The notes below the pieces were generated by a model. It did not search any database. It saw only the letters and a list, made by a program, of their open reading frames with translations, and was not told the DNA's origin. Position numbers and translations under genes: made by a program. A stretch of 54,826 nucleotides of DNA, from the IMG/VR virus record IMGVR_UViG_2687453585_000002. The stretch is one strand, 5' to 3'. Below are positions 4,590-54,826 of this stretch, in pieces. The stretch is from a virus. Taxonomy: Duplodnaviria > Heunggongvirae > Uroviricota > Caudoviricetes. The first letter of the stretch is position 1. Each line of letters opens with the position of its first letter.

Positions 4590-4927
4590 ATTGATAACAG
4601 AGGGCGTTGCAGCGGAGTTGTCACTTAAGCGTATGGTCAACCTGACAACCCGGTGTCCTCAACGGAGGAAGGAATAACCCCGCCATACTTACCGCCGCGC
4701 CATTTCGCGGAGTGCCACAACCGGAAGCGCACGGTCGAACTAAATTTAACGACACCGTACAGAGAGACCAATTTCGCCGTGCGCTTTCGCTTTATGCCCT
4801 GACTTTTCAGGGACATATCCTTTCAGTAAACTGTCAGTGCCGGATGTTCACCCGTGTCCGGCGCACGCACTCCACCTGACCCGTGGAGAACTCCTTAATT
4901 ACCAACCTTAGCTTCGTTGGTTAGCTA

Positions 4928-5146
4928 TTAACGCGGGTATGTAACCATTCTGGCAATGCTTAATGCCGCTGCTTTTTCCAGCCTGGTGATATCCTGCTCC
5001 AGAGCGGACAGATTTTCAGCCTGCTTAGTCCTGGCTTCATTGGCCCATTTCAGATCCTGCGCTGCATTAATTTTCTGGCGCATCCACTCATAAAGTTCAT
5101 CATCGGTATAGTCTGGCGCGATGATGACGGGTTCTCGTTTCTGCAT
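4928..5146 (-). CDS. hypothetical protein, YdfC-like
   Basis: 72-aa ORF in dicBF-type operon position upstream of dicF. Confidence 0.45.
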   Translation of the reverse strand: MQKREPVIIAPDYTDDELYEWMRQKINAAQDLKWANEARTKQAENLSALEQDITRLEKAAALSIARMVTYPR

Positions 5147-5175
5147 ACTGATTCCTCGCGGTGCTGCTTCGCTTA

Positions 5176-5304
5176 TCAGCCGTTAGATTTTGCCGAGCTG
5201 GAAAGCGCCTGTTTAAACTCACTGAAGCTGAGAGCTTCTTCGCCTTCGGCAAGGCCTTCGAAGTATTCTTCGTAAGCCTTTTCCATGATTGTGTCGAAAT
5301 CCAT
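5176..5304 (-). CDS. small acidic hypothetical protein, YdfB-like (42 aa)
   Basis: ORF below the 60-aa track cut-off, found by manual translation: MDFDTIMEKAYEEYFEGLAEGEEALSFSEFKQALSSSAKSNG; tightly packed between neighbouring ORFs. Confidence 0.4.
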   Translation of the reverse strand: MDFDTIMEKAYEEYFEGLAEGEEALSFSEFKQALSSSAKSNG

Positions 5305-5305
5305 A

Positions 5306-5461
5306 TCACTCACCTGAGTTTCTTTCCAGCCAGCGACGGGCACCATTTTCGGTTTTAAACGTTTTGCTTTTGGTATACGTCATTGCGGTGAACGTGCCGT
5401 CCTGGTTGGGGAACACGCCACATACCAGAGATTCGCTGTTGCCAAGATCGATAGTATCCAT
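5306..5461 (-). CDS. hypothetical protein, YdfA-like (51 aa)
   Basis: internal ATG at 5461 preceded by GAGG RBS; product MDTIDLGNSESLVCGVFPNQDGTFTAMTYTKSKTF...; first gene of leftward early operon. Confidence 0.45.
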   Translation of the reverse strand: MDTIDLGNSESLVCGVFPNQDGTFTAMTYTKSKTFKTENGARRWLERNSGE

Positions 5462-5645
5462 GCTGACCTCATTTCCCCTTAACGCCGGGGGAGCGGAACA
5501 AAAACCTGCTGCATAGTTATTAAAGTTGAACCCTGCCGTCATGTTCTTACGCCTCGGGCTGGCTACTTACCCCCTGACCACTGCTTGGTAACTCGAAGTA
5601 TTGCCCGGCGTTCTGTGGGGCGGGGTGGGTTGGTATGTTGTTAAG

Positions 5646-5659
5646 GTAACAAGAGTTAC
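5646..5659. promoter_or_regulatory. putative left operator (OL) palindrome GTAAC-AAGA-GTTAC
   Basis: perfect 5-bp inverted arms with 4-bp spacer, same architecture as the two palindromes between cI and cro; upstream of leftward early operon. Confidence 0.45.
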
Positions 5660-5702
5660 CTTTCGAGTCAATACAATGTTGCAAAAGGTACATTTGAGGG
5701 CA

Positions 5703-5726
5703 TAAAAAACCCGCAATGAATGCGGG
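5703..5726 (-). terminator. intrinsic terminator downstream of cI-like gene
   Basis: minus-strand hairpin CCCGCA-loop-TGCGGG followed by TTTTTTA, 8 nt after repressor stop. Confidence 0.6.
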
Positions 5727-5733
5727 TTCTGAC

Positions 5734-6408
5734 TCAGTCTAAGTATTGATGTATTTGTGAAACTTTACCTTTAATGGTGTAACCACCATTCAGTTCGATG
5801 GGTTTGTAAAGCGGATTCAGTGACAACAGATAGATGTTTGGTCCGTCAATCGCAACTTTTTTTAGTGTTACGTTTGGCGTTCCTTCCAATTGGATTAAGA
5901 TTATTTTTCCCACCAGTTCTCTAATGTTACTTGAGCATGGTGTGATCAGCACGGTAGATCCGTCGGGGATGGTTGGGAGGCCGTTAGAGTTTGTCATCGC
6001 ATCTCCCTCAACATGCAATAAAAAAGAGTTTTCAGCGGTTTTTGTCATGACATCAACCCAGTTCTTAATACCAGGAATCTTGGTTACTGGACAACTCATA
6101 TCCCAATAACCAGCCTGTTCCCACGTTAAAACGGGCAACCGGGCGATGTTGTCACTAATGTAAGGGTACTGATTCAGACGCAGATCATCGGTTTTATCGT
6201 GACCGTCCTTTCCATAAAGAATCCATTCAGGAGATTTGGAAAGCAATTTTGACAGTAGATACAAATTCTCACCGTCAGGTTTTGAAGAGCCATTTTCCCA
6301 TTTTGTTACGGATACACGAGATATGCCGATTGCTTTCGCAACCTGCTGTTGGGTTAATCCAACGTCTTTTCGACGATTCCGAATACGTTCGCTGATAGTG
6401 TTTTTCAT
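5734..6408 (-). CDS. CI-like prophage repressor (HTH_XRE + S24 LexA-like peptidase domain)
   Basis: N-terminal HTH (LTQQQVAKAIGISRVSVTKWENG) and C-terminal S24 domain; start placed at ATG 6408 because operator palindrome abuts it (leaderless, lambda PRM-like); in-frame alternatives at 6450 and 6507. Confidence 0.75.
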   Translation of the reverse strand: MKNTISERIRNRRKDVGLTQQQVAKAIGISRVSVTKWENGSSKPDGENLYLLSKLLSKSPEWILYGKDGHDKTDDLRLNQYPYISDNIARLPVLTWEQAGYWDMSCPVTKIPGIKNWVDVMTKTAENSFLLHVEGDAMTNSNGLPTIPDGSTVLITPCSSNIRELVGKIILIQLEGTPNVTLKKVAIDGPNIYLLSLNPLYKPIELNGGYTIKGKVSQIHQYLD

Positions 6409-6470
6409 GTAACCAATGTTACTACCAAGTGATGTTGCTATGGTTGACATTGTTATGTAACTATTGTTAC
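6409..6470. promoter_or_regulatory. OR-like operator region: palindromes GTAACCAATGTTAC (6409-6422) and GTAACTATTGTTAC (6457-6470); TTGACA at 6444-6449
   Basis: two 14-bp GTAAC-N4-GTTAC palindromes in the divergent cI/cro intergenic region. Confidence 0.55.
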
Positions 6471-6499
6471 CCTTCTGCTCGAAATAACAGGAGAGTTTT

Positions 6500-6715
6500 A
6501 TGTTCAAAGATGATGTTCTGCGCTATTTCAAAAAAAAGCGACTAGTAGCTGAGGCTCTTGGAATTTCACATGTGGCTGTTGTGCGGTGGAAAGCAGTTAT
6601 TCCCAAACTTCGCGCAATGGAACTGGATGAAATTACTAACGGTGAATTGAAATACAACCCAGAACTTTACAAGAAGCAGGATAGCACCTCGAACGAAGGA
6701 AAGAATGATTCATGA
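6500..6715 (+). CDS. Cro-like / YdaS-like HTH regulator
   Basis: 71-aa ORF divergent from repressor; AGGAGA RBS; HTH-like LVAEALGISHVAVVRWK. Confidence 0.65.
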   Translation: MFKDDVLRYFKKKRLVAEALGISHVAVVRWKAVIPKLRAMELDEITNGELKYNPELYKKQDSTSNEGKNDS

Positions 6716-7137
6716 AAATCAAGCATGAACACATCCGCATGGCGATGAATGCCTGGGCGCATCCGGACGGCGAAAAAGTGCCGGCTGCGAAAATTACCAA
6801 AGCGTATTTCGAGCTGGGAATGACGTTCCCGGAACTGTATGACGACAGCCATCCGGAAGCCCTGGCCCGTAATACCCAGAAAATTTTCCGTTGGCTGGAT
6901 AAAGACACCCCTGATGCTGTTGAAAAAATGCAGGCTCTGTTACCGGCGATCGAAAAGGCGATGCCGCCTTTGCTGGTGGCCCGTATGCGCAGCCACAGTT
7001 CTGAATATTACCGTGAGATCGTCGAACGGCGGGATCGGCTGGTGAAGGATGTCGATGATTTTGTTGCGTCAGCGGTTGTTTTGTATGACCAGATGAATCG
7101 CGGCGGCCCGGCAGGGAATGCTGTGGTGATGCACTAA
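6712..7137 (+). CDS. YdaT-like (CII-analog position) protein
   Basis: 141-aa ORF starting MKIKHEHI..., overlapping cro stop (ATGA); position and N-terminus resemble Rac YdaT family as recalled. Confidence 0.5.
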   Translation: MKIKHEHIRMAMNAWAHPDGEKVPAAKITKAYFELGMTFPELYDDSHPEALARNTQKIFRWLDKDTPDAVEKMQALLPAIEKAMPPLLVARMRSHSSEYYREIVERRDRLVKDVDDFVASAVVLYDQMNRGGPAGNAVVMH

Positions 7138-7159
7138 AAGCACGGTGTTCGGGGGTTTT

Positions 7160-8122
7160 ATGAGCAGCAAGCTTCATGGTCTTGTCTGGGAAGGGTGCGC
7201 CTTCACCGGCATGATCTTATCCAGGGTGGCGGTTATGGCCCGTCTTGCAGACTACAGCAATGACGAGGGCGTGTCATGGCCTGCCATTGAAACTATCCGG
7301 CGTCAGATCGGTGCAAGAAGTGAATCCACAGTGAAATCGGCTATTGCAGAACTGGCGAAAGAGGGCTGGCTGACGAAGGAAGAGCGTAAGGTCGGTGGGC
7401 GTAATGTAAGCAATATCTATCGGCTTAATGTGGAAAAACTCGAAGCAGCTGCGGCGGCGGCGCGTGAGTCATATAAACCGAAAAGAAAAATTAGCCCGGC
7501 AAAAAATGACCCGTTAACAGTTGACCCGTCAAATATTGACCCCTCAACGGTTGACCCGTCAAATTTTGATGGATCAACTGTTGATAAAAAACTGCCGATT
7601 AGGGGGCCGATGATTGACCCCGATCCGTCAGTATTAAAACCTGATCCGTCAGATAAAAGATCTTCTTGTCCGGACGCTTCGCAACCGGACCCGCAGACGG
7701 CTGAACAGGATTTTTTAACCCGACACCCTGACGCGGTTGTGTTCAGTGCGAAAAAACGCCAGTGGGGAAGTCAGGAAGATTTGGTGTGCGCACAGTGGAT
7801 CTGGGGACGAATCGTGAGTCTTTACGAGCAGGCGGCCAGCTATGATGGCGAGATCACTAGACCGAAAGAACCCAACTGGACAGCATGGGCCAATGACGTT
7901 CGCACAATGCGGATGCTGGATGGCAGAACTCACAGACAAATTTGTGAAATGTTTGGGCGTCTCCAGCGGGATTCGTTCTGGGTAAAAAACATCATGAGTC
8001 CGGCAAAACTCCGGGAAAAATGGGATGAACTGGTTATCCGCCTGGGGCGTTCGCCTGCGCAGCGTTGCGTGAATCACATTTCTGAACCGGACACTGAAAT
8101 ACCGCCGGGATTCAGGGGGTGA
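7160..8122 (+). CDS. replication initiation protein, O-like/YdaU-like
   Basis: N-terminal winged-helix-like region; central proline/aspartate-rich segment encoded by iteron-like DNA repeats; followed by DnaC-like loader; GTG at 7145 is an alternative start. Confidence 0.65.
   Translation: MSSKLHGLVWEGCAFTGMILSRVAVMARLADYSNDEGVSWPAIETIRRQIGARSESTVKSAIAELAKEGWLTKEERKVGGRNVSNIYRLNVEKLEAAAAAARESYKPKRKISPAKNDPLTVDPSNIDPSTVDPSNFDGSTVDKKLPIRGPMIDPDPSVLKPDPSDKRSSCPDASQPDPQTAEQDFLTRHPDAVVFSAKKRQWGSQEDLVCAQWIWGRIVSLYEQAASYDGEITRPKEPNWTAWANDVRTMRMLDGRTHRQICEMFGRLQRDSFWVKNIMSPAKLREKWDELVIRLGRSPAQRCVNHISEPDTEIPPGFRG
7505..7665. repeat. iteron-like direct repeats (putative ori) inside O-like gene
   Basis: repeated TTGACCCGTCAAAT / TTGACCCCTCAACGG / TGACCCGTTAACAG / TGATCCGTCAG units. 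Confidence 0.55.
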
Positions 8123-8128
8123 CGTGTC

Positions 8129-8875
8129 ATGAAAAACATTGCGGCAGTTGGGGTTCTTGAACGTATTCGCAGACTTGCACCACAGGGGTCGGTTCCACCG
8201 TACCGGACGGTGGAGGAGTGGCGGGAATGGCAACTTGCTGAAGGACGAAAACGCAGCGAGGAGATTAACCGCCAGAATCGCCAGTTGCGGGTGGAAAAAA
8301 TCCTGAATCGTTCGGGCATCCAGCCTCTGCACAGCAAATGCTCGTTTGCAAATTATCAGGTGCAGAACGACGGGCAAAAATACGCGCTGAGCCAGGCCAA
8401 ATCCATAGCTGACGAACTGATGACCGGGTGCACGAATTTTGTGTTCAGCGGTAAAACCGGCACCGGGAAAAATCACCTTGCAGCGGCGATGGGCAACCGG
8501 CTGATGGTGAAGGGGCGCAGCGTGATTATCGTCACCGTGTCTGACGTCATGAGCGTGTTGCATGACAGCTACGACAACGGCAAATCCGGGGAAAAATTTT
8601 TACAGGAGCTTTGCGGGGTTGATTTGCTGGTCCTGGATGAAATAGGCGTTCAGCGGGAGACGAAAAACGAGCAGGTGGTATTGCACCAGATAATTGATCG
8701 CCGGACAGCATCACTGTGCAGTGTCGGGATGTTAACAAACCTGAATCATGCCGCAATGAGTACGCTTCTTGGTGAGAGGATTATGGACCGCATGACCATG
8801 AACGGTGGTCGATGGGTGACGTTTAACTGGGATAGCTGGCGTCCAAATGTCAGCAATATGAGGGTTGTGAAGTAA
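8129..8875 (+). CDS. DnaC-like helicase loader (IstB-like AAA+ ATPase)
   Basis: Walker A FSGKTGTGKNHLAAAMG and Walker B LLVLDEIG; 248 aa. Confidence 0.8.
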   Translation: MKNIAAVGVLERIRRLAPQGSVPPYRTVEEWREWQLAEGRKRSEEINRQNRQLRVEKILNRSGIQPLHSKCSFANYQVQNDGQKYALSQAKSIADELMTGCTNFVFSGKTGTGKNHLAAAMGNRLMVKGRSVIIVTVSDVMSVLHDSYDNGKSGEKFLQELCGVDLLVLDEIGVQRETKNEQVVLHQIIDRRTASLCSVGMLTNLNHAAMSTLLGERIMDRMTMNGGRWVTFNWDSWRPNVSNMRVVK

Positions 8876-9667: not shown

Positions 9668-9682
9668 TTGCCGGAGGCGCTT

Positions 9683-10108
9683 ATGGCAAAAGTATTTACA
9701 CAAGAAGAGCGGGAAAAAATTAAAGGGCAGGTTGTTGAACTTGTACGTCTGAGCGGTCGCGAGACGTTGCGGCAACTGGAAGCCAAGACAGGTGCGACAA
9801 GATATCTGATGAGTGTTCTCGCCAGAGAGCTGGTTGCCAGTGGCGATGTATACAACTCTGGTTACGGGTTATTCCCGTCTGAACAGGCGCGTAAGGACTG
9901 GCAAAATGCTCGCAAAAAACTCTCAAGGGCAAAGGTGAAGAAACCTGCAGTGGTTGATCCGGACCTTATCTGGTCGTTACCAGACGGCGAAATACGCCGC
10001 TACGACAGGCGCCTGAATATAATCTGTCGCGAGTGCCGGAAGAGCGAAGCTATGCAGCGTGTACTGGCATTTTATCAAGGAAATGTTAGGTATTTTAGAC
10101 GTTACTAG
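9683..10108 (+). CDS. hypothetical phage protein
   Basis: ATG at 9683 preceded by GGAGG; 141 aa. Confidence 0.45.
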   Translation: MAKVFTQEEREKIKGQVVELVRLSGRETLRQLEAKTGATRYLMSVLARELVASGDVYNSGYGLFPSEQARKDWQNARKKLSRAKVKKPAVVDPDLIWSLPDGEIRRYDRRLNIICRECRKSEAMQRVLAFYQGNVRYFRRY

Positions 10109-10261
10109 ATTAAAGAGCATTAGTTCAGATGTGAATTGACATTTTCATGGCGCAGGGTAGAGCCAGCGTGGTTGTCCGCTTTGCGTCAAAACCAGATATT
10201 ACCAGATTTAGACATATATTCCCGATAGCCCTGCTCTGATGCTACACTCTGTGCTATTTTC

Positions 10262-10948
10262 ATGACCCCAATAAAAATATTTATGACTATTGCTGATTTC
10301 AAACGGCCTAAATTGGAGCTCCCAAACGGGGCAAACAAACTACTACTGCACTCTTGCTGTGCTCCATGTTCCGGTGAAGTGATGGAGGCGCTTCAGGCCT
10401 CGGGAATCGACTACACCATCTTTTTCTACAACCCGAACATTCATCCTCAGAAAGAGTATTTAATTCGTAAGGATGAAAATATTCGCTTTGCTGAACAACA
10501 CGGCGTGCCGTTTATCGATGCTGATTACGACACCGACAACTGGTTTGAACGTGCCAAAGGAATGGAATGGGAGCCTGAGAGGGGGATCCGTTGTACCATG
10601 TGTTTTGACATGCGTTTTGAGCGGACAGCGTTGTACGCTGCTGAAAATGGTTTCAGTGTGATCAGCAGTTCACTGGGCATTTCACGCTGGAAAAATATGC
10701 AGCAGGTTAACGAGTGTGGGCGGCGAGCTGTTGCGCATTATCCGGGTATGGTGTACTGGGATTATAACTGGCGCAAGCAGGGCGGCTCGTCCCGTATGAT
10801 TGAAATCAGCAAGCGCGAAAAATTCTATCAGCAGGAATATTGTGGCTGTGTGTATTCTCTGCGCGATACCAATCTACACCGCAAATCTCAGGGACGCCCT
10901 CTTATCAAAATTGGCCAACTCCACTACGGAAAAGAAGAGAAGGAGTGA
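10262..10948 (+). CDS. DUF208/QueH-like protein (putative epoxyqueuosine reductase)
   Basis: [11 protein letters not shown] motif near N-terminus plus CTMC and CGC cysteine motifs and ~220-aa size fit the QueH family; start 10262 or 10283. Confidence 0.55.
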
Positions 10949-11185
10949 TTTTATGGATCACCTTTCTGATTGATTTCATATTGGCGAGGTGACGTGAGTT
11001 AAGTAGAATGGCTGCGGGTGCTTGAGGCTATCTGTCTCAGGCATGAACACTGAAAGGCAGATAGAGAAAAGCCCCAGTTAACATTTCGCGTCCTGCAAGA
11101 CGCTTAACATTAATCTGAGGCCCAATCTATGTCTCACAAATGTAGGTTAGCCTCTTACGTGCCGAAAGGCAAGGGGAAGCAGGCT

Positions 11186-11341
11186 ATGAAGCAGCAAAAG
11201 GCGATGTTAATCGCCCTGATCGTCATCTGTTTAACCGTCATAGTGACGGCACTGGTAACGAGGAAAGACCTCTGCGAGGTACGACTCCGAACCGGCCAGA
11301 CGGAGGTCGCTGTCTTCACAGCTTACGAACCTGAGGAGTAA
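11186..11341 (+). CDS. hok: Hok/Gef-family type I toxin (HokD/RelF-like)
   Basis: 51-aa product MKQQKAMLIALIVICLTVIVTALVTRKDLCEVRLRTGQTEVAVFTAYEPEE matches HokD nearly exactly as recalled; single TM helix. Confidence 0.85.
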   Translation: MKQQKAMLIALIVICLTVIVTALVTRKDLCEVRLRTGQTEVAVFTAYEPEE

Positions 11342-14612: not shown

Positions 14613-15662
14613 ATGGCTAATACTGTAAAAATATCCAGTTGTGAGTTAATCAACGCCGACTGCCTGGAATTTATCCGGTCGTTACCCGAAAATTCTGTTG
14701 ACCTGATAGTCACGGACCCGCCGTACTTTAAAGTGAAGCCTGAGGGCTGGGATAACCAGTGGAAGGGCGACGATGATTACCTGAAGTGGCTGGACCAGTG
14801 TCTGGCGCAGTTCTGGCGGGTGCTGAAACCTGCCGGAAGTCTTTACCTGTTCTGTGGTCATCGCCTGGCATCTGATATCGAAATCATGATGCGTGAACGC
14901 TTCAGTGTGCTGAACCATATTATCTGGGCGAAGCCGTCCGGACGCTGGAACGGATGCAACAAGGAAAGCCTGCGGGCGTATTTCCCCGCCACAGAGCGCA
15001 TTCTGTTCGCGGAACATTATCAGGGGCCGTATCGTCCGAAAGATGCCGGGTATGCGGCGAAGGGCAGTGCACTGAAACAGCATGTGATGGCCCCGCTGAT
15101 TTCTTACTTTCGTGATGCGCGCGCGGCCCTGGGGATAACGGCAAAACAGATTGCAGATGCCACAGGAAAGAAAAACATGGTGTCGCACTGGTTCAGTGCC
15201 AGTCAGTGGCAGCTACCGAACGAAAGCGATTATCTGAAATTACAGTCGCTGTTTGCCCGGGTGGCAGAAGAGAAACATCAGCGCGGTGAACTGGAAAAGC
15301 CCCACCACCAGCTGGTGGATACGTATACGTCACTGAACCGGCAGTATGTGGAGCTGCAGAGTGAATATAAGCATCTGCGGCGGTATTTTGGTGTGACGGC
15401 GCAGGTGCCGTACACGGATGTGTGGACACATAAACCGGTGCAGTTCTATCCCGGGAAACATCCGTGCGAAAAACCGGCAGAAATGCTGCAGCAGATAATC
15501 AGCGCAAGCAGTCGTCCGGGTGACCTGGTTGCAGATTTTTTTATGGGCTCAGGTTCAACGGTAAAAGCGGCACTGGCGCTCGGGCGTCGTGCGATTGGCG
15601 TTGAGCTGGAGACCGGACGTTTTGAGCAGACAGTCAGGGAAGTTCAGGGTTTAATCGTTTGA
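14613..15662 (+). CDS. DNA N6-adenine (or N4-cytosine) methyltransferase, orphan
   Basis: motif IV DPPY (IVTDPPYF) near N-terminus and motif I FxGxG (DFFMGSGS) near C-terminus; no adjacent restriction gene. Confidence 0.8.
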   Translation: MANTVKISSCELINADCLEFIRSLPENSVDLIVTDPPYFKVKPEGWDNQWKGDDDYLKWLDQCLAQFWRVLKPAGSLYLFCGHRLASDIEIMMRERFSVLNHIIWAKPSGRWNGCNKESLRAYFPATERILFAEHYQGPYRPKDAGYAAKGSALKQHVMAPLISYFRDARAALGITAKQIADATGKKNMVSHWFSASQWQLPNESDYLKLQSLFARVAEEKHQRGELEKPHHQLVDTYTSLNRQYVELQSEYKHLRRYFGVTAQVPYTDVWTHKPVQFYPGKHPCEKPAEMLQQIISASSRPGDLVADFFMGSGSTVKAALALGRRAIGVELETGRFEQTVREVQGLIV

Positions 15663-15711: not shown

Positions 15712-15787
15712 GGCCCTTTAGCTCAGTGGTGAGAGCGAGCGACTCATAATCGCCAGGTCGCTGGTTCAAATCCAGCAAGGGCCACCA
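15712..15787 (+). tRNA. tRNA with CAU anticodon (Ile2/Met type)
   Basis: acceptor stem GGCCCTT/AAGGGCC, GTTCAAATCC T-loop, anticodon loop CTCATAA, 3' CCA. Confidence 0.8.
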
Positions 15788-15887: not shown

Positions 15888-15964
15888 GCGTTGTTAGCTC
15901 AGCCGGACAGAGCAATTGCCTTCTAAGCAATCGGTCACTGGTTCGAATCCAGTACAGCGCGCCA
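15888..15964 (+). tRNA. tRNA-Arg (UCU)
   Basis: acceptor stem GCGTTGT/ACAGCGC, T-loop GGTTCGAATCC, anticodon loop CTTCTAA, 3' GCCA. Confidence 0.8.
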
Positions 15965-20343: not shown

Positions 20344-21527
<1,184 letters not shown>

Positions 21528-44689: not shown

Positions 44690-46231
44690 ATGCCAACAGT
44701 TCCAATTTCTATGAGAAAACTTAAAGAAATTCTTAGGCTTAAATACGGTGTTGGACTCAGCCATCGACAAATTGGTCGTAGTCTTGCAATCTCCCCTTCC
44801 GTTGTATCCAGATATGCTAATCGGGCGGCTCAACTTGGCATAAAGCAGTGGCCCTTACCTACAGGATGGGATGATACAAAACTAAAACATGCGTTCCTTC
44901 AGACCCAGGTTAAGATGAAGAAGCACTCTCTGCCTGACTGGGCTACAGTACACCGGGAACTGCGTAATAAATGCGTGACGCTGCAGCTACTCTGGGAAGA
45001 ATACTGTGAGCGTAATCCAGGCGGTTTTTACAGCTATAACCATTACTGCCGGATGTACCGTGAATGGCTCAAAACCACTTCACCATCAATGCGTCAGGTA
45101 CATAAAGCTGGCGAAAAACTTTTCGTTGATTACTGTGGACCTACCGTTGGCGTTACCGACCCTGAGACCGGAGAAATAAGAACTGCTCAGGTCATCGTAG
45201 CTGTTCTCGGGGCATCAAGTTACACATGGGCAGAGGCCACCTGGTCTCAGCAGCTTGAAGACTGGGTGATGAGTCATGTTCGCTGCTTCCAGTGGTTGGG
45301 TGGCGTTCCTGAACTTGTTGTTCCGGACAATCTGAAAAGCGCCACATCCAGGGCATGTAAGTATGATCCTGACGTTAACCCTACCTACCAGCAGATGCTT
45401 GAGCATTATAATGTCGCAGTTTTGCCTGCGCGGCCACGTAAACCGAAAGATAAAGCCAAAGCTGAAGTTGGCGTTCAGGTTGTTGAACGCTGGATCATGG
45501 CCCGAATCAGGCATGAGATCTTCTACAGCCTTGCATCGCTTAATCAGCGCATTCGGGAGTTGCTGGAAAGACTGAATAACAAAATAATGCAGAAGTTGGG
45601 TTATTCACGTGCAGAACTCTTCATCCAGCTTGATAAACCCGCACTGAAGCCTCTTCCTGAAGCCAGTTACAGTTACACCCTGGTGAAGAAAGTCAGAGTT
45701 CATGCCGATTACCACGTGGAAATCGACAAACATTACTACTCGGTTCCATGTTCGCTGTTAGGCCAGCAACTGGAAGCATGGATCTCCGGAGAACTGGTAA
45801 GACTCTTCAATCAGGGGCAGGAGGTTGCTGTGCACCCGCGCAAGCGTACTTATGGCTACAGTACCCGCAACGAGCACATGCCTGAAGCTCATCGACAGCA
45901 TGCCACCTGGACGCCAGAGCGTCTTCTGGAATGGGCGGGGCACATAGGCAGTGAAACTCATAGTTATGTGCTTCATATACTGAACTCTCGTCCACATCCG
46001 GAACAAAGCTATCGCTTCTGCCTTGGACTCCTGAACCTTCATAAAAAATACAGTAAAGCCAGACTTAATGCAGCATGTGCAAGAGCTCTGAAAACAAAGG
46101 TATGGCGTCTGTCAGGTATTAAATCGATCCTGGAAAAAGGTCTGGATAAACAACCTGTTCAGGATCCAAAACCAGATCTGTTATCCACGATGGAACACGA
46201 AAACGTACGCGGCAGTGAGTATTACCACTGA
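44690..46231 (+). CDS. istA: IS21-family transposase IstA
   Basis: 513 aa; N-terminal HTH; DDE core. Confidence 0.8.
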   Translation: MPTVPISMRKLKEILRLKYGVGLSHRQIGRSLAISPSVVSRYANRAAQLGIKQWPLPTGWDDTKLKHAFLQTQVKMKKHSLPDWATVHRELRNKCVTLQLLWEEYCERNPGGFYSYNHYCRMYREWLKTTSPSMRQVHKAGEKLFVDYCGPTVGVTDPETGEIRTAQVIVAVLGASSYTWAEATWSQQLEDWVMSHVRCFQWLGGVPELVVPDNLKSATSRACKYDPDVNPTYQQMLEHYNVAVLPARPRKPKDKAKAEVGVQVVERWIMARIRHEIFYSLASLNQRIRELLERLNNKIMQKLGYSRAELFIQLDKPALKPLPEASYSYTLVKKVRVHADYHVEIDKHYYSVPCSLLGQQLEAWISGELVRLFNQGQEVAVHPRKRTYGYSTRNEHMPEAHRQHATWTPERLLEWAGHIGSETHSYVLHILNSRPHPEQSYRFCLGLLNLHKKYSKARLNAACARALKTKVWRLSGIKSILEKGLDKQPVQDPKPDLLSTMEHENVRGSEYYH

Positions 46232-46242
46232 TACGGGATCCA

Positions 46243-46992
46243 ATGATGAATCATCTTTACGAACAACTGACCGCACTTAAACTCACCGGCTTCCGTGATG
46301 CGCTTAAAAAGCAACTTGCTCAACCGGGCACATACCAGGAGCTGGGCTTCGAAGAACGCCTGTCATTACTGACAGCAGAAGAACTAACCTGCCGTGAAAA
46401 CAGGAAGGCAGAGCGTCTGATCAAACATGCACGGTTCAGACTTAATGCTGAGTTATCAAAGCTGGATTATCGTAACAATAGAGGGCTGGACAGGGCCCTC
46501 ATCCGTTCACTCAGTCAGGGAAACTGGTTAACCCTGAAACAAAATATTTTACTGACCGGGGCCACCGGCAGCGGTAAAACGTTCCTGGCATGTGCACTTG
46601 GTCATAATGCCTGCCGACAGGGATACAAGGTCTACTATTATCGCCTTAAAGCGCTGATGGAACAGTGCTATCAGGGGCATGCTGATGGAAGATACAGCAA
46701 ACTTTTGACCAGGCTGAATAATAGCGATCTGCTGCTTCTGGATGACTGGGGGCTGGAACCTCTCTCATCAGAACAGCGTAGCGACCTGCTGGAAATAGTG
46801 GATCTGATGTACCAACGAGGCTCAATCATCGTAGTGAGCCAGTTGCCGGTGGAAAACTGGTACAAAATGATCGGAGACTCCACACATGCGGATGCCATCC
46901 TAGATCGACTGGTTCATGGCAGTATCAAGATCGAACTTAAAGGAGAATCAATGCGGAAAATACAATCTCCGTTGACCGAAGGAGATCAGTGA
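46243..46992 (+). CDS. istB: IS21-family helper ATPase IstB
   Basis: Walker A GATGSGKTFLA and Walker B LLLLDDWG. Confidence 0.85.
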   Translation: MMNHLYEQLTALKLTGFRDALKKQLAQPGTYQELGFEERLSLLTAEELTCRENRKAERLIKHARFRLNAELSKLDYRNNRGLDRALIRSLSQGNWLTLKQNILLTGATGSGKTFLACALGHNACRQGYKVYYYRLKALMEQCYQGHADGRYSKLLTRLNNSDLLLLDDWGLEPLSSEQRSDLLEIVDLMYQRGSIIVVSQLPVENWYKMIGDSTHADAILDRLVHGSIKIELKGESMRKIQSPLTEGDQ

Positions 46993-50375: not shown

Positions 50376-50903
50376 ATGCAACATCTGAAAAATATTACCG
50401 CCGGAAACCCCAAAACCATTGAGCAGTATCAGCTTACGAAAAAAGCTGGCGTTATCTGGCTATATACAGAAGACGGTAAAAACTGGTATGACGAATTAAA
50501 AAACTTTCAGGATGATACTTTAAAAATAGCTTATGACCAGAAGGGGATTATTCGTTGTATTGAGAAAGACGTATCAACACTTAACCCTGACGGGTTAAGT
50601 GTTGTTGAGTTACCGAATATAACAGCCAACCGTCGCGCCGATATCTCGGGAAACTGGAAGTTTCTGGATGGTAAAGTAGTAAAGCGGGAATATACAAAAC
50701 AGGAACTGCAACAGCAGGCAGAGTTACAAAAAGCCGCTTTGCTTTCCGAAGCGGAGTCTGTGATTCAACCGCTGGAACGTGCTGTCAGACTGAATATGGC
50801 AACTGATGAGGAACGCACACGACTGGAATCATGGGAACGCTACAGCGTTATGGTCAGCCGTGTGGATACTGCAAAGCCTGAATGGCCACAGAAACCAGAA
50901 TAA
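50376..50903 (+). CDS. tfa: tail fibre assembly protein
   Basis: 175 aa; follows stf. Confidence 0.8.
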
Positions 50904-50933: not shown

Positions 50934-51467
50934 TTATTCTGGTGGTTCCGGGAATGTTACAGGAAGAACCGAGGTATCAGTTGTCTCAACCTGTTGCACG
51001 TATCGCATCCAGTTCATCAGTTGCTGTCTGTCTGAATCAGTGATAATCCCCAAAGTAAGCTGTGTTTGCCAGAACTGCGTTTTTTCTCTGGCCTGCTGTA
51101 ATAATATTTTTTTCTGGTTTTCCGTCTGTAGGCGCAACTCTTCTTCGGTATATACACGTTTAATGACTGCGCCATCTTTAAACATCCATTTACCTGAGTC
51201 GTCAGCACGCCGGTTGGCGGTAATATCAGGAATCTCAACGACGCTATAACCTTCAGGGTTAAGTGTGGAGGCATCTTTGGTTATGGCAACAATAATATTA
51301 TTTTCATCGTAAACAATCTTTATGGTGTCTGGCTGAAAGTTTTTCACTTCCTCATACCAGTTTTTTCCGTCCTCAGAGTAAAGCCAGATAACTCCGTGTT
51401 TCTTTGTTAACTCATACTGTTCCAGTGTTTTAGCATTACCCGCTTTTATGTTCTTTAAGTGCATCAT
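50934..51467 (-). CDS. tfa: tail fibre assembly protein (alternative, inverted orientation)
   Basis: 177 aa paralogous to the plus-strand tfa ([30 protein letters not shown]...). Confidence 0.8.
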
Positions 51468-51468
51468 A

Positions 51469-52416
51469 TTAAACGCTCGCTACATTATACCAGGTGCCAT
51501 TTATATACTTTTGAACGGGTCTGTAATAAACGCCCGCTATATTATCGGCAGAGTTAGACCCTGTATCCTGAACATTAATACCAGACAATACATGACCTGA
51601 AGGGCACTGGAAATTCCATGTTTGCCAGTTGTTCACTCCATAATATTGCTGTGAACCAAGTCGAACATCTTTCACATAACGGGAATCAAAGTTACCGTAA
51701 TCCGAGGGGTTAACACGCCCTGTAATATTTATGGTTTTATTACTTTGAATGCTTCCGGAGACAAAGCGCATAACATGGACGTTATTAGCATAAACATCCA
51801 GATTACCATCGCCATTTTGTTTAAAGCCCGTGTCATTATCACCCAATACAATCGAATTACCGCCAAGAGCACTGGATGTTCCGATACCCAGTGCACCATT
51901 CAGTTGACCACCAGATAACGGCAGTGCACCAACATCTCCTGCTGAAGGCTTTCTGGTGGTGGTGTAAAATTCGGACCAGTCGGCTTCAAAACCATAACCA
52001 TCACGGGCTGAACGATAAAAAATACCGCCATTTTTATAATTAATCCGAAACTGAGCTGCAGGACAACTTCCTTCTCCCATATAAAAATGAATAATTAACG
52101 TTGATGCACCACTAATAGTTGCGTTATAGGCTCCGCTACTCCAGTTCCATCCAACTGCTTTATCATTCGCAACGGTGCTTCCTGTTTTCCCTAAGGCAAA
52201 CGCACCAACATGACTTGCTTTTAATGTGATATCGGAGGAACCATCAAAAGCCACATTGCTTATTTTCCTGGCAGTTTTTAATTTTGCAGCTGTAGAAGCA
52301 TTGCCGGATAGTTCACCAGAAAGGCCACCGCTGAATGTTTGTCGATTAGTCCAGGTATTCGCTGTACTGAGTAACGGTATTTTCTCCCCGCTTGTGCCGA
52401 GTTCTCGTAAACCGAG
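51469..52416 (-). CDS. alternative tail-fibre C-terminal segment (promoterless, fused to stf on inversion)
   Basis: frame open from the crossover site (stop TAA lies inside site at 52420-52422); shares ALGGNSIxLGDNDTG block with current stf C-terminus. Confidence 0.65.
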
Positions 52417-52862: not shown

Positions 52863-53531
52863 CTATTTTTTCCCTGAAGCGGAAAACATTACTACAGTAC
52901 CTTGAACCTTGGTTTTAACATTCTCGAAATGCTCTGAGAGTATATGTGTTAAGCCTTCTTCGGAATCTTTTGTGTTTGAAAAGATGCCTTTCTGATTGTA
53001 AATGCGCATCAGTTTTTGACCGAAGCTATTGTGCACAACTCCATCGCCAAGAATTGTGGCTCCGTATAGAGTTCCATCGTCAGTTAAGGCCTGCGCCGCA
53101 TTGCGTATTACACAGCTTTTTGTAGATATATTTCCAGGCAGGCAGTGAAGAAGGTAAAACATGGAAATGGAATCAAATTGACCATGTAACGCCGCGGGAT
53201 AAGGTTCAAAAACATCATGGCTAATTTTATGTTTAATTTTTGATTCCCCAGCCCTTGTAGATGCCGCGTTCAGGCTAGCTTCGTTCAAATCCATTAAAGA
53301 TATCAGACTACTCTCAGGTACGTGAGTAAGGTAAAACCCAGTTCCAACACCAATATCCAGATGGTTGTTACCTACATGTTCCAGAAAGTGTGGAAGAAGG
53401 TGTTCCTTTGTAGGACATCCCCATGCAAGCCGATTTGATACTCCCAAAACCCACCAGTCATAAAGCTTTAGGGTAAGTGGTGTGTAAATTTTAGCCCCAT
53501 CATCTGTGTTTTTTTTCATTGATTTCACCAT
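52863..53531 (-). CDS. class I SAM-dependent methyltransferase
   Basis: 222 aa; motif I LDIGVGTGFY; AT-rich relative to neighbours; flanked by ~130-bp direct repeats. Confidence 0.6.
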   Translation of the reverse strand: MVKSMKKNTDDGAKIYTPLTLKLYDWWVLGVSNRLAWGCPTKEHLLPHFLEHVGNNHLDIGVGTGFYLTHVPESSLISLMDLNEASLNAASTRAGESKIKHKISHDVFEPYPAALHGQFDSISMFYLLHCLPGNISTKSCVIRNAAQALTDDGTLYGATILGDGVVHNSFGQKLMRIYNQKGIFSNTKDSEEGLTHILSEHFENVKTKVQGTVVMFSASGKK

Positions 53532-54268: not shown

Positions 54269-54826
54269 TTAAAACCGCATCAACCTTTCCACCAATTGTT
54301 CTTTACGGGCAACGATCCACCCATGTTGCTCCAGATAAAATTTAAACCGTTCCAGCGTGCATACCATCGCATCGGCGGGGACTTTTTCTGTGAACTCGAC
54401 CTGACCGTGTTTATCGAAGTGGATCAGTAATGCGCATCCATTATTTGGGGCGGGGGAGTTTTGTGCTGCAGGAGGACGTTTGTGGAGTTCTTCTTCCATT
54501 GCGTTAAATTTTTCAATGTAAGCTTCTTTTAGTCTGGCTGCTTTTTTGCCAGTAAATCCCATTACGAGGAACATGAAGCCGTCTTTTGTGATCAGGTAGC
54601 ATCGTGATTCACGTTCTGCGCCGTTGCCAATTTCGACAGTCTGAACATCGGCCGAAAAGTTGGCTGATGTAAATTCGGGAGAGCAGTCGAGTGTGTCAAT
54701 CTTAGCTAAAACGTGTTTATGTTGTTTATCGAAGTAGTCGGCAACAGCTTGAGAGGTGGTAACCAGGCGACCATCTTTGAAAAAGACTTTTGGTGACTCG
54801 TTAGAAAAAGTTATAGCTGTATTCAT
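54269..54826 (-). CDS. Rha-family phage regulatory protein
   Basis: 185 aa; N-terminal VTTSQAVADYFDKQHKHVLAKIDTL resembles Rha N-terminal domain; start ATG is the last 3 nt of the window. Confidence 0.6.
   Translation of the reverse strand: MNTAITFSNESPKVFFKDGRLVTTSQAVADYFDKQHKHVLAKIDTLDCSPEFTSANFSADVQTVEIGNGAERESRCYLITKDGFMFLVMGFTGKKAARLKEAYIEKFNAMEEELHKRPPAAQNSPAPNNGCALLIHFDKHGQVEFTEKVPADAMVCTLERFKFYLEQHGWIVARKEQLVERLMRF

Follow-up and report, generated by a model that had tools for sequence, protein, structure and literature searches.

A predicted epoxyqueuosine reductase gene of the QueH family as cargo of lambdoid prophages in Escherichia coli

The DNA analysed here, referred to below as the window, is the whole stretch of 54,826 nucleotides held in IMG/VR as viral record IMGVR_UViG_2687453585_000002, which comprises a lambda-like prophage of Escherichia coli. 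Its genes run from a CI-like repressor gene through YdaT-like, O-like, DnaC/IstB-like, DUF1627 and DUF977 genes to a QueH-family open reading frame of 228 amino acids (10262-10948, plus strand), and continue beyond it with sok/hok, DUF968, RusA and Q, a DNA methyltransferase gene, two tRNA genes and the lysis and morphogenesis genes (Table 1). As the original prediction had placed it, the queH gene thus lies in a nin-like region, between genes of the replication module on one side and hok/sok, DUF968, RusA and Q on the other. Its upstream neighbour, the DUF977 gene, is the last of a conserved early block and is also found at this place at the O104:H4, O157, E. coli B and WL164 loci.

Table 1. 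Positions of the features of the window that are discussed in the text
Feature	Coordinates	Strand	Basis or remark
O-like replication gene	7145-8122		
DnaC/IstB-like gene	8129-8875		
DUF977 gene, upstream neighbour of queH	9668-10108	+	Pfam PF06163, E = 7e-28
Intergenic region between the DUF977 gene and queH	10109-10282	+	Promoter/terminator and Rfam scans
Candidate extended -10-like element, TGCTACACT	10240-10248	+	Conserved, common with Erwinia queH
Upstream in-frame extension, 7 codons	10262-10282	+	ATG 10262 variable, orthologs start later
queH coding sequence, 221 aa plus stop (most likely start)	10283-10948	+	Pfam, PDB, cysteine set, AF2, PGAP start
hok/sok type I toxin-antitoxin locus	11016-11341	+	Rfam sok and mok/hok ORF
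sok	11016-11191		Rfam RF01794, 120.5 bits
mok/hok ORF	11129-11341		
DNA methyltransferase gene	14613-15662		Upstream of both tRNA genes
tRNA, anticodon CAU	15712-15787		tRNA-Met according to ARAGORN
tRNA-Arg, anticodon UCU	15888-15964		
IS3-family element	20344-21527		orfA 20344-20682, orfB 20709-21527
IS21-family element	44690-46992		Transposase 44690-46231, IstB 46243-46992
Tail-fibre-assembly gene	50376-50903	+	
Tail-fibre-assembly gene	50934-51467	-	
Tail-fibre C-terminal fragment	51469-52254	-	
Segment resembling an invertible host-range segment	50376-52254		
SAM-dependent methyltransferase gene	52863-53531	-	Beyond the tail fibres
Rha-family phage regulator gene	54269-54826	-	Cut by the window end

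Membership of the reading frame in the QueH family is real and far beyond chance. In a profile search its product matches Pfam PF02677 (QueH, formerly DUF208), the family to which it had been assigned from the sequence, with an E-value of 1.1e-65 and 221.5 bits against a curated cutoff of 23.5 bits, and the alignment is full-length, spanning positions 1-174 of the 175 of the profile; the QueH from Thermotoga maritima (PDB 7lc5) matches it with an E-value of 8e-22. No NCBIfam model matches the protein, and PHROGs assigns it to phrog_3217, of 'unknown function'. The reading frame proposed in the original prediction exists, with its start most likely at ATG 10283 (221 amino acids) and not at ATG 10262 as first given. 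The start is placed at 10283 because three observations agree there: the N-termini of the chromosomal orthologs align with this position, the PGAP/RefSeq start is its equivalent (WP_000150294.1, 221 amino acids), and ATG 10283 is invariant across four aligned prophage alleles while ATG 10262 is replaced by ATT in the allele of strain WL164. The seven codons between the two are probably a 5' leader rather than coding sequence. A Shine-Dalgarno sequence was found neither before ATG 10262 nor before ATG 10283.

All seven of the cysteines conserved in the family are retained in the prophage protein, in the motifs CCAPC (Cys32, Cys33 and Cys36), RCxxC (Cys111 and Cys114) and CGC (Cys194 and Cys196), numbered here on the 228-residue frame. 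They were checked in an alignment with close homologs and T. maritima QueH and in a second alignment to which 79 diverse family representatives were added; the seven columns hold cysteine in nearly all of these representatives and in T. maritima QueH, save for Asp13 of the latter. A cysteine at the position of this aspartate, the third in the first motif, is the family norm (68 of the 73 sequences that have no gap there). The deposition in the PDB of C9S and D13N mutants of the Thermotoga enzyme marks the first motif as functionally studied. Work by Li and coworkers from 2021 is said to have assigned the conserved cysteine set to a [4Fe-4S] cluster and an adjacent iron in QueH.

The fold leads to the same family. 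An AF2 model of the prophage protein (pLDDT 74.3, pTM 0.75) was searched with Foldseek, and the top five PDB matches were all T. maritima QueH (E = 2e-9, with TM-scores of 0.72-0.76 when normalized by target), the next being Fe-S tRNA thiolases of the adenine-nucleotide alpha-hydrolase superfamily. T. maritima QueH (PDB 7LC5, 7LC7 and 9DEU; PF02677/IPR003828) is about 31-33% identical to the prophage protein and shares with it the CCxPx, RCxxC and CGC motifs as well as the modelled fold. The two differ in that the prophage protein has a cysteine in place of Asp13 and a conserved basic C-terminal tail of ~25 residues, which is common to gammaproteobacterial orthologs, and in that its gene lies in a prophage and not in a chromosomal housekeeping locus. 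In silico, the prophage protein is a QueH by profile, cysteines and fold, and it is predicted to run the same reaction, the conversion of epoxyqueuosine (oQ34) to queuosine (Q34) on tRNA without cobalamin. As a separate observation, the WL164 allele (7001-7669 of its locus) carries C152S and I109R (228-residue numbering), at positions that are nearly invariant among close homologs, and keeps all seven of the metal-type cysteines.

What follows the DUF977 gene differs among related prophages. In the Qin prophage of E. coli K-12 the same slot is filled by relB-relE upstream of hokD, an equivalence that had been correctly anticipated, and hokD is also annotated in the O104:H4 locus that is identical to the window. 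Other prophages have queH in the slot, with or without hok/sok: in O157:H7 Z563 it is followed by a cytosine methyltransferase gene and an NgoMIV-type endonuclease gene (the two at 4851-6861 of its locus), and in strain W2-5 by a Kiwa KwaB-like gene (4875-6514 of its locus). Even among the 80 IMG/VR loci that have the identical queH allele, the spacing from queH to hok and to DUF968 varies by kilobases. This varying content of the slot argues that queH is cargo, apparently at the edge of an accessory and defence hotspot of lambdoid prophages, and the presence or absence of the gene at a fixed slot among related prophages is a polymorphism of the moron type. The Qin relBE/hokD, restriction-modification and Kiwa cargo occupies the same position as queH, from the replication module to DUF968-RusA-Q; it consists, however, of toxin-antitoxin or defence modules, whereas queH would encode a metabolic tRNA-modification enzyme.

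In the alleles of phage HannyBb, E. coli B and WL164, an additional segment of ~375 bp follows the queH stop codon, ahead of sok/hok (6782-7160, 7667-8045 and 7670-8050 of their own loci, respectively). This segment includes a long perfect hairpin (GAGCAGGTCAT...ATGACCTGCTC) and small open reading frames on the reverse strand. In the window allele this segment is cleanly deleted at 10949 and the hairpin is gone, and the deletion turns the last residues of QueH from KEGQE into KEEKE.

Upstream of queH, the candidate extended -10-like element TGCTACACT ends 35 nt before ATG 10283 and sits within a block, CTCTGATGCTACAC, that is invariant in the four prophage alleles, while the flanks further upstream differ. 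The same 9-mer is found 31 nt before the ATG of the chromosomal queH of Erwinia, where a TTGGAG sequence lies 17 nt upstream of the TACACT hexamer. In about 150 kb of compared loci the element was found only at sites upstream of queH, and the window has a single copy of it, against a chance expectation of 0.17. No good -35 was found for the proposed -10 element, a generic sigma-70 scan returned no consensus promoter or terminator flanking queH on the plus strand, and an Rfam scan showed no riboswitch upstream of the gene, its only match being the downstream sok. Judged from the conservation of its upstream sequence, queH may have been captured with a native promoter and may be transcribable in lysogens; a transcription of its own, in the manner of a moron gene, is putative. 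The gene is also co-oriented with the early rightward operon, with no terminator detected upstream of it, and hence should be transcribed after induction as well.

Prophage queH is present in 995 of 5426 complete E. coli genomes (~18%), and 985 of these 995 carriers hold at least 80% of the gene. It usually occurs as one copy per genome and is almost always chromosomal. Among the carriers are ST131-type strains, identical to the window, O104:H4, O157:H7 and a laboratory strain derived from E. coli B. In IMG/VR, QueH relatives are encoded by 191 viral contigs, the best 80 of the 191 being 100% identical. Carriage by deposited phages is rare: among 50,697 phage genomes, Escherichia phage HannyBb is the only isolated phage with queH, which bears out the description of the gene as unexpected phage cargo. 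A tblastn search of this collection gave 25 matching records; those besides HannyBb are either faecal 'Bacteriophage sp.' fragments that lack annotation or very large and doubtfully viral, and were not counted as phage carriage.

The further claim that such a gene is not routinely annotated stands for phage pipelines, PHROG 3217 being without a function and the product in HannyBb being a 'hypothetical protein', and fails for RefSeq, where PGAP gives the name 'epoxyqueuosine reductase QueH' in every E. coli record among the matches listed. Homologs of QueA, QueG and QueH were reported as absent from the viruses analysed by Hutinet et al. (2019; PMC6884629), and the impression left by this survey, that viruses lack genes specific to Q maturation, is corrected by prophage queH. 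No paper describing a prophage-borne queH in E. coli was found in the searchable literature, where the gain of QueH by E. coli via lambdoid prophages appears not to have been described. Since the family, the chemistry and the database name of the enzyme are known already, the advance is one of context, not of kind.

Between the four prophage alleles dS is 0.27-0.45 and dN is 0.013-0.022, giving dN/dS values of 0.044-0.065; a ratio of about 0.05 points to strong purifying selection on queH within the gene pool of the phages. The gene has stayed intact in visibly decayed prophages, namely in E. coli B, whose Qin-like remnant contains an IS3 insertion, a shortened gene for DUF968 and fragments of tail genes, and in a Rac-like remnant of strain WL164. 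It is likewise intact in the prophage of the window, which carries IS3-family and IS21-family elements and is probably defective.

A search of a 5.8-billion-protein database placed the nearest relatives of prophage QueH, with 78-90% identity and the source name 'epoxyqueuosine reductase QueH', in Erwinia, Gibbsiella, Photorhabdus, Providencia, Proteus, Ewingella, Rahnella, Dickeya, Serratia symbiotica, Arsenophonus and Sodalis. Three of them were inspected in their contigs (Erwinia, Providencia and Photorhabdus; 78-86% identity), and all lie in ordinary chromosomal surroundings: the Erwinia gene (86% identity) between purL and glrK-qseG-glrR-glnB-hmp-glyA, that of Providencia near tmcA and purC, and that of Photorhabdus adjoining benE. 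E. coli K-12 has the purL-glmY-glrK synteny without queH. The chromosomal proteins of Enterobacterales agree with the prophage protein in length and at both termini; their genes, in contrast, lie in core synteny, whereas in E. coli the gene resides in lambdoid prophages and is carried by some strains and missing from others. At this level of identity (78-86% to chromosomal housekeeping QueH) a divergent phage-specific homolog was rejected, and prophage queH is an orthology-level copy of what in sister lineages is a housekeeping gene. Between prophage queH and the chromosomal copies the synonymous sites are saturated, indicating that the capture was not recent. In the Erwinia locus (region 5345-6000), queH occupies the place between purL and glrK where K-12 has only the sRNA gene glmY, and a terminator-like hairpin (5829-5857), which may be the glmY terminator, stands ahead of the promoter-like element of queH.

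The presence of two tRNA genes in the same prophage had been rightly noted. The first, with anticodon CAU, has a homolog in O104:H4 annotated as tRNA-Ile and is probably a lysidine-type reader of AUA; both are rare-codon tRNAs. A connection between them and queH, suggested in the original prediction, was rejected: Q is received by GUN anticodons, and the anticodons CAU and UCU do not make these tRNAs Q substrates, so that they are not mechanistically tied to queH.

In queuosine biosynthesis, QueA makes oQ on tRNA, and either QueG or the non-orthologous QueH reduces oQ to Q (PMC5372724). QueG is a cobalamin/[4Fe-4S] enzyme (PMC4646009, PMC5175355), and the title of Frey et al. (1988), as cited in these two papers, describes the oQ-to-Q step in E. 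coli and Salmonella as cobamide-dependent, while QueH is iron-dependent and cobalamin-independent (PMC13443448). Neither tgt nor queA was found among the ~50 window reading frames scanned against Pfam; according to published work, the E. coli host supplies both for the oQ substrate (PMC5372724). The queG gene is present in all 5426 complete E. coli genomes, and hence in every queH carrier. As a consequence, prophage queH always duplicates a reaction already encoded by the host, and would change its cofactor requirement: the reaction of QueG is the one predicted for prophage QueH, but QueG is non-homologous to it, requires cobalamin and is the product of a core and not an accessory gene. E. coli is not known to synthesise cobalamin de novo, and oQ is reported to accumulate when B12 is absent. 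Since QueG needs this cofactor, prophage queH most likely frees the completion of Q from B12.

The interpretation that we favour is composed of several steps of unequal certainty. The prophage gene is proposed to encode QueH, an Fe-S epoxyqueuosine reductase with no need for cobalamin, and to derive from the chromosome of an Erwinia-like donor within the Enterobacterales, its own promoter probably having been taken along in the capture. It would travel as cargo in the variable accessory slot that separates the replication genes from the DUF968-RusA-Q block. Its product would convert oQ to Q at position 34 of host tRNA-Asp, tRNA-Asn, tRNA-His and tRNA-Tyr, and would make this completion independent of the B12 supply in lysogens and, queH being in the rightward early transcription unit, during lytic growth too. 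Action on host tRNA, one of the two roles originally offered, is the most likely role predicted for prophage QueH. As a whole, the reading in which captured queH cargo makes the oQ-to-Q step cobalamin-independent in lysogens is the best explanation of the data, with a probability of roughly 0.6.

That B12-independence is the selected benefit is conjectural, the gut often being replete with B12, and we know of no established difference in fitness between oQ- and Q-containing tRNA for E. coli. On the other hand, in a TnSeq data set queG insertions act like tgt insertions under nickel and cobalt stress (PMC9508795), and phage infection of Shewanella specifically induces the oQ-to-Q step (bioRxiv 10.64898/2026.03.05.709803). 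Both findings suggest that oQ is no full equivalent of Q.

The Shewanella result would also suit a purely lytic-phase role, in which queH is expressed from the early rightward promoter after induction and raises Q for phage translation with no benefit to the lysogen. The co-orientation of queH with the replication and Q genes, with no terminator detected between the DUF977 gene and queH, and its carriage by HannyBb, an isolated and viable phage, are likewise compatible with this role. It is nevertheless rather unlikely, given that queH is intact, and apparently under purifying selection, in decayed prophages that are past lytic growth (E. coli B, WL164 and the IS-disrupted window), and that the gene has a conserved promoter-like element in common with its chromosomal ortholog. 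Nor does the prophage show a bias towards NAU codons, the NAU fraction of its NAY codons being 0.54 compared with 0.53 in seven K-12 genes, and a codon-usage motive for queH was set aside as unsupported. The surroundings of queH could alternatively point to a part in, or support for, anti-phage defence or counter-defence, the slot being a hotspot for defence and addiction genes that holds hok/sok here, relBE in Qin, the NgoMIV-type restriction-modification pair in Z563 and the Kiwa KwaB-like gene in W2-5, with downstream content that varies among the 80 loci with the identical allele. This same variability leaves queH with no constant partner gene; PADLOC gives no match for QueH, and a protein with 78-86% identity to a tRNA enzyme of housekeeping function, and with no additional domain, makes an improbable defence component.

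The gene could also be a neutral hitch-hiker, captured with no selected function in phage or lysogen; in favour of this, queH is redundant with the core queG in every genome and confined to 18% of genomes. Against this, and making it a distinctly improbable account, stand the dN/dS of about 0.05 over a dS of 0.27-0.45 between prophage alleles, the retention of all of the catalytic-type cysteines and the preservation of at least 80% of the gene in nearly all carriers. The other role originally offered for QueH was action on 7-deazaguanine derivatives in phage DNA. Incorporation of such bases by phages into DNA is established (PMC6884629), and a DNA methyltransferase gene lies nearby in the window; however, the published phage deazaguanine systems lack QueA, QueG and QueH (PMC6884629), and the oQ substrate is made only on tRNA, by QueA (PMC5372724). 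A search for DpdA/TGT, FolE, QueA, QueC, QueD, QueE and QueF among the ~50 window reading frames scanned against Pfam returned none, neither a transglycosylase nor a gene of the preQ0 pathway. A role of prophage QueH in DNA modification is accordingly judged, on gene content, to be very unlikely, to the point of being scarcely tenable.

If prophage QueH is active in lysogens, about one in five E. coli strains would finish Q by a B12-independent route that K-12 lacks. This would be a clear case in which a temperate phage changes the tRNA modification state of its host, and a hidden variable in studies of tRNA modification and translation that compare E. coli backgrounds. A testable prediction is that carriers, including the E. 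coli B derivative, make Q without B12 and that K-12 does not. BtuB, besides its part in B12 uptake, is a receptor for phages and colicins. More tentatively, and with the odds rather against it, prophage QueH may create a strain-level difference in the tRNA epitranscriptome, carriers maturing Q without B12 and K-12-like non-carriers stalling at oQ when B12 or its uptake by BtuB is lacking. Translation quality would then be uncoupled from the B12 supply and the cost of repressing or losing BtuB would be lowered, which would amount to a lysogenic-conversion trait acting via tRNA modification.

The remainder of the window contains several other features (Table 1). The prophage is interrupted by two insertion sequences: the IS3-family element sits in the lysis cassette, with a DUF1327/YdfR-like gene on one side and the lysozyme gene on the other, and the IS21-family element lies between the tail-tip gene J and the tail-fibre gene. 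The opposed tail-fibre-assembly genes, together with the C-terminal tail-fibre fragment that follows them, look like a host-range segment of the invertible kind; the window showed no gene for an invertase. Beyond the tail fibres, the genes for a SAM-dependent methyltransferase and a Rha-family regulator may be right-end cargo of the prophage or the start of an adjacent element.
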